Of a stretch of 64,000 nucleotides of DNA, positions 8,090-36,560 are shown piece by piece; position 1 is the first letter of the stretch; every line of letters begins with the position of its first letter. A model generated the notes under the pieces. That model saw only the letters and a list, made by a program, of their open reading frames with translations. It was not told the origin of the DNA and did no database searches. The stretch is from Escherichia coli (GTDB lineage Bacteria > Pseudomonadota > Gammaproteobacteria > Enterobacterales > Enterobacteriaceae): assembly GCF_048403405.1 (NCBI RefSeq), contig NZ_CP183129.1; one strand, written 5' to 3'. The position numbers were made by a program, and so were the translations under genes.

Positions 8090-8465
8090 GACAATCTTCC
8101 TTGAGTAAAGTGTGGGAATATGTCACATGAGGTGAGGAGAAAACAGCCGACAGGTGAGAATTCAGAATCTATAAAGGGGTATAGCGAAAAAACATTGCAT
8201 TAAAAAGTATGCTTTCGGACATTCAATAAATAAATAGAGACATGCATCACAAATACAATAACAAACAAAATGTTGATTTTGTGATAAACATAACAAATAC
8301 AAAGTTGACTTTGTAAGTATTTATTTCATGTTGTTGTTATTTAAAGTTTTATTATTTTTGTTCATGGGGTTTTTCTTCTCGCGTACCCAATTGCTTTCAT
8401 TAAACCGCACGAGTATTTTATTTTTACCGCCGGACGGTACCCTAAAAATAAAATAAGGATAATTT

Positions 8466-13820: not shown

Positions 13821-14104
13821 CAATTTATTCCAGTTATTGCAGGGGTATTATTACGCCAGCCTGGAATAAAGCCCCCTACAAAAGGGGATAAAAGTGTGAT
13901 GTAAGTCAGATAAATGTCTTCTTCGGCTGGACAATCATTCCTTTTATTCCACGTTTCGCTTATCCTAGCTGAAGCGTTTCAGTCGATTAAATGTTCGACA
14001 ATTAACCAATCAGTCGCAGTTTGCGACAGGTAAGGTTTCCCCGGACGATTTGCTGGATTACTCTGTCTGGCAAATTTGCTCAGGGAAAACCTTGCAGGAG
14101 ATCT

Positions 14105-22851: not shown

Positions 22852-23637
22852 TTAATGACCAACGAAATTAGGTTTACGTTTTTCGAGGAAAGCGTTCATC
22901 CCTTCCTGGTAATCTTCGCTGTCATAAACCGCGCGGCGCATCCCCTGAATACGTTCAAATTCATCGGAGTTCATGGTGTGTGCTTCGCCCAGTACACGCA
23001 GCTCTTCTTTGATAACGGCAATGGCTAACGGCGCTTTCTCAGAGATGTGGTGCGCCATTTGTAAGGTGAAATCTTCCAGTTCTTCCACTTCCACAACATG
23101 GTTGAGGATGCCGACAGCCAGCGCGCGCTGGGCGGTGATTGGCGAAGCGGTAAAAATCAGCTCTTTGACAATGTGGAAGCCCGCGTCGCGGGTCAGGTTG
23201 TGAATGCCGACCAGGTTATACGGGACACCGAGGTTTACAGGTGTCATTGAGAAGGTTGAGGTACTGGCGGCGATAATCAGATCGGAACTCATGATCATTT
23301 CAAATGCGCCACCCCAAACACTACCTTCCACCATCGAAATGATCGGTTTCGGGAATTTTTGGATCATGCGGGTGATTTGACGCAATGGATCATCATAGGA
23401 GAGCGGATCGCGACCGCCAGACGGCAGTTCGTGAATATCGTGACCTGCGGAGAAGACTTTGGATCCACTCGGCGCGCGCAAAATGATACAGCGAATTTCC
23501 GGCCGGTTGAGATCGCTTAACGCCTGCATAAGATCATCAATAAAGACTTTACTTAAGGCATTAAGTTTTCGGCCATAGTTAAACTCAATGACCGCCACTT
23601 TGTTGATAGTGACAACGTTCACATACTGATAAGACAT
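22852..23637 (-). CDS. scpB: methylmalonyl-CoA decarboxylase (crotonase fold), 261 aa
   Basis: Internal ATG gives MSYQYVNVVTINKVAVIEFNYGRKLNAL... 261 aa; ORF-track 275 aa is over-extended. Confidence 0.9.
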   Translation of the reverse strand: MSYQYVNVVTINKVAVIEFNYGRKLNALSKVFIDDLMQALSDLNRPEIRCIILRAPSGSKVFSAGHDIHELPSGGRDPLSYDDPLRQITRMIQKFPKPIISMVEGSVWGGAFEMIMSSDLIIAASTSTFSMTPVNLGVPYNLVGIHNLTRDAGFHIVKELIFTASPITAQRALAVGILNHVVEVEELEDFTLQMAHHISEKAPLAIAVIKEELRVLGEAHTMNSDEFERIQGMRRAVYDSEDYQEGMNAFLEKRKPNFVGH

Positions 23638-28304: not shown

Positions 28305-28964
28305 ATGACGCAGGATGAATTGAAAAAAGCAGTAGGATGGGCGGCACTTCAGTATGTTCAGCCCGGCACCATTGTTGGTGTAGGTACAGGTTCCACCGCC
28401 GCACACTTTATTGACGCGCTCGGTACAATGAAAGGCCAGATTGAAGGGGCCGTTTCCAGTTCAGATGCTTCCACTGAAAAACTGAAAAGCCTCGGCATTC
28501 ACGTTTTTGATCTCAACGAAGTCGACAGCCTTGGCATCTACGTTGATGGCGCAGATGAAATCAACGGCCACATGCAAATGATCAAAGGCGGCGGCGCGGC
28601 GCTGACCCGTGAAAAAATCATTGCTTCGGTTGCAGAAAAATTTATCTGTATTGCAGACGCTTCCAAGCAGGTTGATATTCTGGGTAAATTCCCGCTGCCA
28701 GTAGAAGTTATCCCGATGGCACGTAGTGCAGTGGCGCGCCAGCTGGTGAAACTGGGCGGTCGTCCGGAATACCGTCAGGGCGTGGTGACCGATAATGGCA
28801 ACGTGATCCTCGACGTCCACGGCATGGAAATCCTTGACCCGATAGCGATGGAAAACGCCATAAATGCGATTCCTGGCGTGGTGACTGTTGGCTTGTTTGC
28901 TAACCGTGGCGCGGACGTTGCGCTGATTGGCACACCTGACGGTGTCAAAACCATTGTGAAATGA
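28305..28964 (+). CDS. rpiA: ribose-5-phosphate isomerase A, 219 aa
   Basis: [39 protein letters not shown]...; ORF-track start 28233 (TTG) over-extended. Confidence 0.95.
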
Positions 28965-29220
28965 TCTGACGGGGGAACCTCCCCCCGTTAAAAAAATTCT
29001 CTTCATTAAATTTGGTGACATGTGTCACGTTTTTACCTGGCTATTGTCGATTGCTCTAAATAAACCATCTAAACCAGCATATTCATCCAAGAAATACCTT
29101 TGCGTGATATTTCCTCAACATCGCGACGCAAACGTTCATATTGCCGCAATATTATTTTTTGATATGTTGAAAGGCGGATGCAAATCCGCACACAACATTT
29201 CAAAAGACAGGATTGGGTAA

Positions 29221-30453
29221 ATGGCAAAGGTATCGCTGGAGAAAGACAAGATTAAGTTTCTGCTGGTAGAAGGCGTGCACCAAAAGGCGCTTGAAAGCCT
29301 TCGTGCAGCTGGTTACACCAACATCGAATTTCACAAAGGCGCGCTGGATGATGAACAATTAAAAGAATCCATCCGCGATGCCCACTTCATCGGCCTGCGA
29401 TCCCGTACCCATCTGACTGAAGACGTGATCAACGCCGCAGAAAAACTGGTCGCTATTGGCTGTTTCTGTATCGGAACAAACCAGGTTGATCTGGATGCGG
29501 CGGCAAAACGCGGGATCCCGGTATTTAACGCACCGTTCTCAAATACGCGCTCTGTTGCGGAGCTGGTGATTGGCGAACTGCTGCTGCTATTGCGCGGCGT
29601 GCCGGAAGCCAATGCTAAAGCGCACCGTGGCGTGTGGAACAAACTGGCGGCGGGTTCTTTTGAAGCGCGCGGCAAAAAGCTGGGTATCATCGGCTACGGT
29701 CATATTGGTACGCAATTGGGCATTCTGGCTGAATCGCTGGGAATGTATGTTTACTTTTATGATATTGAAAACAAACTGCCGCTGGGCAACGCCACTCAGG
29801 TACAGCATCTTTCTGACCTGCTGAATATGAGCGATGTGGTGAGTCTGCATGTACCAGAGAATCCGTCCACCAAAAATATGATGGGTGCGAAAGAGATTTC
29901 GCTAATGAAGCCCGGCTCGCTGCTGATTAATGCTTCGCGCGGTACTGTGGTGGATATTCCGGCGCTGTGTGACGCGCTGGCGAGCAAACATCTGGCGGGG
30001 GCGGCAATCGACGTATTCCCGACGGAACCGGCAACCAATAGCGATCCATTTACCTCTCCGCTGTGTGAATTCGACAACGTCCTTCTGACGCCACACATTG
30101 GCGGTTCGACTCAGGAAGCGCAGGAGAATATCGGCCTGGAAGTTGCGGGTAAATTGATCAAGTATTCTGACAATGGCTCAACGCTCTCTGCGGTGAACTT
30201 CCCGGAAGTCTCGCTGCCACTGCACGGTGGGCGTCGTCTGATGCACATCCACGAAAACCGTCCGGGCGTGTTAACTGCGCTGAACAAAATCTTCGCCGAG
30301 CAGGGCGTCAACATCGCCGCGCAATATCTGCAAACTTCCGCCCAGATGGGTTATGTAGTTATTGATATTGAAGCCGACGAAGACGTTGCCGAAAAAGCTC
30401 TGCAGGCAATGAAAGCTATTCCGGGTACCATTCGCGCCCGTCTGCTGTACTAA
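29221..30453 (+). CDS. serA: D-3-phosphoglycerate dehydrogenase, 410 aa
   Basis: 410 aa MAKVSLEKDKIKFLLVEGVHQKALESLRAAGYTNIEFHKGALDDEQ... Confidence 0.95.
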   Translation: MAKVSLEKDKIKFLLVEGVHQKALESLRAAGYTNIEFHKGALDDEQLKESIRDAHFIGLRSRTHLTEDVINAAEKLVAIGCFCIGTNQVDLDAAAKRGIPVFNAPFSNTRSVAELVIGELLLLLRGVPEANAKAHRGVWNKLAAGSFEARGKKLGIIGYGHIGTQLGILAESLGMYVYFYDIENKLPLGNATQVQHLSDLLNMSDVVSLHVPENPSTKNMMGAKEISLMKPGSLLINASRGTVVDIPALCDALASKHLAGAAIDVFPTEPATNSDPFTSPLCEFDNVLLTPHIGGSTQEAQENIGLEVAGKLIKYSDNGSTLSAVNFPEVSLPLHGGRRLMHIHENRPGVLTALNKIFAEQGVNIAAQYLQTSAQMGYVVIDIEADEDVAEKALQAMKAIPGTIRARLLY

Positions 30454-36517: not shown

Positions 36518-36560
36518 AAATTTCTCTTCTGCTGTTTATTTGATACCCATCACACTTTCA

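Follow-up and report, generated by a model that had tools for sequence, protein, structure and literature searches.

A CRP-cAMP binding site in the serA regulatory region of Escherichia coli and its conservation across the Enterobacterales

Introduction

The product of the serA gene, D-3-phosphoglycerate dehydrogenase, catalyses the first committed step in serine biosynthesis, which is a major drain on glycolytic carbon. Expression of the gene is regulated by Lrp and Nac. In the stretch of Escherichia coli DNA analysed here (64,000 nucleotides, referred to below as the window), a short inverted repeat located between rpiA and serA had been picked out in a sequence-only reading as a possible target of a dimeric regulator. 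The locus therefore raises the question of what this repeat is: a binding site (and if so, of which protein), a part of the termination signal of the upstream gene, or a symmetry of the kind that any DNA of this length contains. If the element does bind a regulator, it has also to be asked which of the serA promoters it serves, and in which direction.

Materials and Methods

Bases 28850-29350 of the window show 100% identity to several complete E. coli genomes, in which this DNA is annotated as rpiA and serA. Window positions were converted to those of K-12 MG1655 by the relation 3058410 + (29221 - x), where x is the window base; this holds barring one single-base indel. Over the aligned 300 bp, K-12 and the window differ by eight substitutions and one indel.

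Candidate CRP sites were scored with a symmetric weight matrix built from the 39 other sites in Table 1 of the Footprint-seq study (PMC12871828), the serA site having been excluded. For the comparative analysis, the 400 bp preceding the ATG of 80 serA loci, taken from one-genome-per-species contigs, were scored with the same matrix.

Results and Discussion

The inverted repeat in the rpiA-serA intergenic region

The upstream neighbour, rpiA (ribose-5-phosphate isomerase A), occupies positions 28305..28964 of the + strand, as defined by its ORF and translation, by the RefSeq annotation of identical DNA and by a check of the start and stop codons (the latter at 28962-28964). The serA coding sequence, defined by its ORF and annotation, lies on the same strand at 29221..30453, with the ATG at 29221. 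Between them, at 29015-29028 of the + strand, we found the repeat GTGACATGTGTCAC exactly where it had been reported. Its description as a perfect palindrome was correct for the 6-bp arms (GTGACA and TGTCAC), but not for the 2-bp spacer TG, which is not self-complementary; the element is therefore better called an inverted repeat than a palindrome perfect over all 14 bp. The distance to the serA ATG, given as about 190 bp, agrees with our measurement (the last base lies 192 bp before the ATG, and the centre at -199.5). The repeat had also been placed about 50 bp after the rpiA terminator. The hairpin at the end of rpiA (28967-28990) is in fact only 25 bp away, and the figure fits the stop codon instead (51 bp).

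Taken alone, the palindrome does not exceed what chance would give. In the window its exact pattern was found a single time, and in none of 100 shuffled sequences, whereas perfect inverted repeats of the 6+2+6 type number 23 (15.6 expected), and those with perfect 6-bp arms separated by 0-10 bp number 256. The core GTGA-N6-TCAC is present three times against about one expected, and matches to the CRP consensus with at most two mismatches are found at chance level (32 against 26.5 expected). The features that do exceed chance are the match to the motif, the conservation of the site across genera and the published data on CRP binding.

Recognition of the site by CRP

The earlier suggestion that the arms are of the TGTGA type and bind a dimeric regulator is supported by the CRP matrix score, by a published in vitro footprint and by the regulon listing of serA; of the candidates that it named (CRP, Lrp and Nac), the evidence favours CRP. 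The arm layout has to be modified: the working register consists of two 5-bp half-sites with a 6-bp spacer, and not of the 6+2+6 arrangement. In the CRP register the sequence reads GGTGA-catgtg-TCACG, with both cores (GTGA and TCAC) intact and correctly spaced by 6 bp. The complete 22-bp CRP-cAMP binding site, TTTGGTGACATGTGTCACGTTT, extends over 29011..29032 (it is assigned to neither strand), as delimited by the sequence, the matrix score, Footprint-seq and conservation; its core, GGTGA-N6-TCACG, lies at 29014-29029 and its centre between 29021 and 29022.

Compared with TGTGA-N6-TCACA, the site carries two mismatches, one in each half (4/5 matches in both), and both are at the outermost bases. 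[quoted passage not shown] On the left the site is flanked by TTTG, where the symmetric consensus has AAAT. The serA 20-mer scores 15.2 bits with the CRP matrix (the sites used for training score between 9.7 and 22.3, median 17.2), and ranks fourth among the 63,981 positions of the window.

Four further matches to the CRP matrix were noted elsewhere in the window, at 13893-13912, 36537-36556, 8278-8297 and 23606-23625 (17.1, 16.8, 16.3 and 13.7 bits, respectively). By approximate mapping to K-12 coordinates, the first three are found upstream of epd, gcvT and cmtB, and the fourth inside the scpA-argK-scpB cluster. The epd, gcvT and cmtB sites are intergenic, like that of serA, and have comparable or slightly higher scores (16.3-17.1 bits). 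They contain at least one perfect TGTGA or TCACA half, while the serA site is more symmetric, with both of its halves imperfect.

Direct evidence of binding comes from the Footprint-seq preprint of 2026 by Wang, Stringer and Wade (PMC12871828), which describes in vitro CRP-bound sites together with their Kd values. Table 1 of this work contains the entry 'ttGGTGAcatgtgTCACGctt', with its centre at 3058610, a Kd of approximately 4.8 nM and serA as the gene (PMC12871828). The K-12 centre 3058610 maps to window base 29021, which is the centre of the palindrome. K-12 is identical to the window over 29000-29029, the first difference being at 29030 (T in the window, C in K-12). The same work labels the serA site 'novel', in the sense of not being near a RegulonDB CRP site with coordinates (PMC12871828), so the position of the site may not have been curated before 2026.

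The gene itself is a long-listed member of the CRP regulon. It is among the RegulonDB CRP targets recovered by genomic SELEX, and it appears among the 699 promoters in Table S1 of the CRP ChIP-exo study of Latif (2018), where the 'TSS' given corresponds to the 3' end of the gene. Thus, both the assignment of serA to the CRP regulon and the in vitro affinity of this exact site, published for the same K-12 sequence, were already known. We conclude that the palindrome is a CRP binding site of the serA promoter region, real but ordinary.

Conservation of the site among Enterobacterales

The sequence-only reading had made its proposal depend on conservation in orthologous serA promoters, and the site is indeed kept across the Enterobacterales. 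In nearly all members of this order in our sample, the best match to the CRP matrix was the orthologous site, located 194-227 bp before the ATG and scoring 10-20.7 bits. Of the 31 genera or species of Enterobacterales aligned, 30 reach at least 10 bits at this position; the genera carrying the site include Escherichia, Citrobacter, Enterobacter, Kluyvera, Pantoea, Erwinia and Yersinia, as well as Serratia, Rahnella, Budvicia, Proteus, Providencia and Xenorhabdus. Several genera are nearer to the consensus than E. coli, and the form shared by Yersinia and Budvicia (TTGGTGATATATATCACATT) attains 20.7 bits. In Vibrio, Pasteurellaceae, Shewanella and Pseudoalteromonas, the CRP matrix revealed no such site within the 400 bp before serA; the best scores there were mostly 0-9 bits, at scattered positions. 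Within the species, a 28-nt exact word covering the site is retained in 5331 of 5426 complete E. coli genomes (34-bp query).

In the 31-sequence Enterobacterales alignment, the frequency of the most common base is 0.99 for the GTGA and TCAC cores, 0.70 for the 6-bp spacer and 0.47-0.62 for the neighbouring intergenic DNA. The sixth pair of the arms is not conserved (Citrobacter, Enterobacter and many other genera carry GTGACTTGTGTCAC), so that what is conserved is the core recognised by CRP and not the 6-bp arms.

These data bear on the possibility that the element is merely a chance palindrome without function. Such a reading could draw on the abundance of 6+2+6 repeats and on the chance-level number of loose CRP matches in the window; against it, the site keeps its position all the way from Escherichia to Proteus and Xenorhabdus in the midst of scrambled flanking DNA, the spacing to the promoters is fixed (see below), and binding has been measured in vitro. 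Conservation together with the published binding data refutes it, and we attach practically no probability to this reading.

The alignment also revealed constraint at positions other than the cores. The spacer T residues at 29021 and 29023 are conserved at 0.90 and 0.97 (their mirror positions at only 0.55), and the TT at 29011-29012 at 0.97. This is more constraint in spacer and flank than the weak preferences of CRP predict, and a second factor or a requirement for DNA bending may overlap the site.

It could accordingly be asked whether the element is the site of another serA regulator (Lrp, Nac or an unknown dimeric factor), its likeness to a CRP site being incidental. The known regulation of the gene by Lrp and Nac, and the hint of an overlapping constraint given by the spacer and flank residues, point in this direction. 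Yet purified CRP footprints the exact sequence at about 5 nM, the invariant bases are precisely the GTGA and TCAC contacts of CRP, and the drift seen in other genera, as in Yersinia and Budvicia, is toward the CRP consensus. The consensus motifs of the two named regulators are YAGHAWATTWTDCTR for Lrp and ATA-N9-TAT for Nac; the element is unlike either of them. We regard this explanation as extremely improbable, and the identification of the site as that of CRP is retained.

The 3' end of rpiA

A GC-rich hairpin with a 9-bp stem and a 6-nt loop was identified by folding immediately after the rpiA gene, at 28967..28990 of the + strand, in agreement with 3' ends mapped to 28990 and 28993. Its arms, TGACGGGGG and CCCCCGTTA, are followed by AAAAAAA and not by a run of T residues (28967-28996), and the stem contains one more C in the window than in K-12. 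The rpiA 3' end given in passages of the Term-seq data, K-12 3058638 (window 28993), falls just past this hairpin (PMC7815308), and an rpiA transcript detected by SMRT-Cappable-seq, extending from 3059353 to 3058641, ends at window base 28990 (PMC6131387). A read-through rpiA-serA transcript is present in the same data set (PMC6131387). The ends at 28990 and 28993 may be exonuclease-trimmed products of termination further downstream.

Such trimming would leave room for another function of the palindrome: its hairpin, with the T-run that follows, could form a weak intrinsic terminator or a 3' stabiliser for rpiA transcripts. Like intrinsic terminators, the element lies downstream of a gene and combines an inverted repeat with a T-rich stretch after it; a terminator scan flags the same bases (GTGAC-ATGT-GTCAC, then GTTTTTACCT), and the hairpin is present in the minimum-free-energy fold. 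Since the upstream GC hairpin has no U-tract, the mapped ends could be trimmed ones that hide ends located downstream, and read-through into serA does occur. The fifth stem pair, moreover, changes from C-G to T-A in several genera; paired base changes are, however, likewise seen in symmetric protein sites.

In other respects the element differs from intrinsic terminators. Its stem is too short and weak (only 5 bp with three GC pairs, -4.8 kcal/mol) to qualify as a stable GC-rich hairpin. The T-run lacks conservation: at least five T residues in the 8 nt past the stem are present in only 7 of 31 relatives, and the tail itself, GTTTTT in the window, is GCTTTT in K-12. The GTGA and TCAC cores are fixed in base identity, which goes beyond mere complementarity, and the conserved flanks (TT at 29011-29012, 0.97, and the TT after TCAC) lie outside the stem. 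Finally, no 3' end at 29030-29036 (K-12 approximately 3058596-3058601) is given in the gene-name passages of the Term-seq data or in SMRT-Cappable-seq. A role of the palindrome in ending or stabilising rpiA transcripts thus appears very unlikely, and the CRP site is the reading with which we proceed.

Position of the CRP site relative to the serA promoters

A generic promoter scan of 28900-29300 revealed no consensus sigma-70 promoter, and the promoters were therefore assigned from conservation and published start sites. Promoter P1 extends over 29141..29176 of the + strand and consists of a -35 hexamer TTGCCG (29141-29146), an extended -10 TG (29160-29161), a -10 hexamer TATGTT (29163-29168) and a start at 29176. 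The start corresponds to the serA start detected by SMRT-Cappable-seq at K-12 3058455, 45 nt before the ATG (PMC6131387), and the hexamers are conserved across the Enterobacterales in the alignment. The centre of the CRP site is at -154.5 relative to this mapped start.

A second conserved block in the 31-sequence alignment contains the -10-like hexamer CATATT (nATtTT in relatives) at 29078..29083 of the + strand. Judged from its sequence and conservation, this hexamer is probably the -10 of an upstream, CRP-dependent promoter P2. It would predict a P2 start at about 29090-29092, which would place CRP at -68.5 to -70.5. In the 2002 work of Yang et al., P2 reportedly starts 136 nt before the ATG, which we take to be window base 29085; the CRP site would then be at -63.5. 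Canonical CRP positions are -61.5, -71.5 and so on for class I promoters, and -41.5 for class II, and both estimates for P2 differ from the textbook -61.5. No P2 start was found in the Cappable-seq, Kim 2012 or SMRT-Cappable-seq data, the last of which detected only P1. The region examined is the same locus as the serA P1/P2 region of Yang, Lin and Newman (2002) and of RegulonDB, and its P1 is confirmed.

The spacing between these elements is strikingly rigid. Measured from the CRP centre, the -10-like hexamer lies 56.5 bp away in 27 of the 31 sequences and the P1 -10 lies 141.5 or 142.5 bp away in 29 of the 31, across intervening DNA that is itself poorly conserved (0.47-0.49). The length of the 5' UTR, measured from the P1 -10 to the ATG, is by comparison variable (51-84 bp). 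Fixed spacing over poorly conserved DNA argues for a single phased assembly made up of CRP, the polymerase site of P2 and the apparatus of P1. The order-wide conservation of both the site and its spacing supports a physiological role. This comparative support (the site and its distances to both promoters being conserved throughout the order) is what the present analysis adds; it is not a discovery.

One further candidate feature of this region was rejected. A 66-aa ORF (29020-29220), whose ATG lies inside the palindrome, runs up to the serA start. Both promoters and the 5' UTR fall within it, and in relatives this region shows indels that are not multiples of three and varies in length; the ORF was therefore rejected as a gene and is almost certainly not coding.

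Mode and direction of regulation

We hold with high confidence that the element is a CRP-cAMP site of the serA regulatory region that most likely serves class I-type activation of P2. In the mechanism that we propose, a CRP dimer would recognise the half-sites GGTGA and TCACG, 6 bp apart, within 29011-29032. CRP-cAMP bound there, upstream of the -35 region, would recruit RNA polymerase via the C-terminal domain of the alpha subunit, and would activate P2, the weak promoter located upstream, through a contact of the class I type made from approximately 63-70 bp upstream. Lrp would activate the main promoter P1 and occlude P2, and CRP might then couple serine biosynthesis to carbon status when the control of P1 by Lrp relaxes. 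This agrees with the literature on P2, in which cAMP-CRP is said to activate this promoter and Lrp to repress it. Three points are inferred: the exact start of P2, the class I (alpha-CTD) contact and the direction of the effect in vivo.

Among class I CRP promoters, the site is at -61.5 in lac and at -70.5 in malT. The serA site resembles these in its 22-bp two-fold symmetry, its GTGA-N6-TCAC cores and its A/T-rich flanks, as well as in preceding a promoter whose -35 is poor and in its nanomolar binding. It differs from them in its non-consensus outer bases (G for T and G for A), in a distance to the P2 start that is estimated at -63.5 to -70.5, and in being placed within an Lrp-controlled tandem promoter for which the reported regulatory sign is contradictory.

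This contradiction concerns the direction of the effect. Activation of serA by CRP is stated in passages of papers that cite Yang, Lin and Newman (2002), while the part of a carbon-limitation transcriptome study that deals with this gene describes it as behaving in vivo as CRP-repressed, against the earlier reports of activation. In line with the latter, CRP bound to the site might repress, or might serve the Lrp nucleoprotein complex as an architectural partner, and not be a class I activator. Besides the fit of serA expression to CRP repression in those passages, such a role would suit the near-invariant CRP-P1 spacing over DNA of low conservation, which suggests a phased multi-protein assembly, and the position relative to P2 (-63.5 to -70.5), which differs from the canonical -61.5. 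In the work of Yang et al. (2002), the footprint of Lrp is said to extend from -158 to -82 relative to P1, and would in that case abut or overlap the CRP site. On the other side stand the activation reported in the citing papers and the spacing from CRP to the P2 -10-like hexamer, which is equally fixed (56.5 bp), as direct activation would predict; furthermore, the report of repression is indirect, being based on growth-rate-correlated expression in a delta-crp strain. On balance, we consider a repressing or architectural role to be rather unlikely, and class I-type activation of P2 remains the preferred reading.

The rigid CRP-P1 spacing points to a phased assembly of protein and DNA in which Lrp presumably takes part. 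A specific form of the architectural idea, somewhat less likely again, is that CRP constitutes a fixed component of an Lrp-serA nucleoprotein switch and is not a simple class I activator. If this were true, the bending of DNA by CRP, phased with wrapping by Lrp, may decide between P1 and P2, and the conflicting reports of activation and repression would be reconciled. The spacing behind this idea is near-invariant across the Enterobacterales despite scrambled DNA in between, and concerns the P2 -10-like hexamer (56.5 bp) as well as the P1 -10 (141.5 or 142.5 bp). The presence of a CRP site in the serA promoter region links the flux through the serine pathway to carbon status, and the site offers a precise target for settling whether CRP activates or represses serA.

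Other features of the serA upstream region

An Rfam scan of 28900-29300 identified no RNA family; its sole match (E = 0.57) is spurious.

A sequence resembling a PurR box, ACGCAAACGTTCATAT, was noted at 29126-29141, where it abuts the -35 hexamer of P1. The PurR consensus is ACGCAAACGTTTGCGT, and by our own count about 12 of 16 positions match it. The sequence is conserved across the Enterobacterales as GCAA[A/T]CGTT. A structure-based method has predicted serA as a PurR target, and a PurR site has been predicted before the rpiA-serA operon of H. influenzae.

Just past the P1 start, the serA 5' UTR contains a hairpin, GCGGAT-GCAA-ATCCGC (29174-29189), whose sequence is not conserved outside Escherichia in the alignment. 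Passages of the Term-seq data place 3' ends nearby, at K-12 3058437 (window 29194, 27 nt before the ATG) and 3058407 (window 29224) (PMC7815308). These ends could be products of premature termination or of processing.
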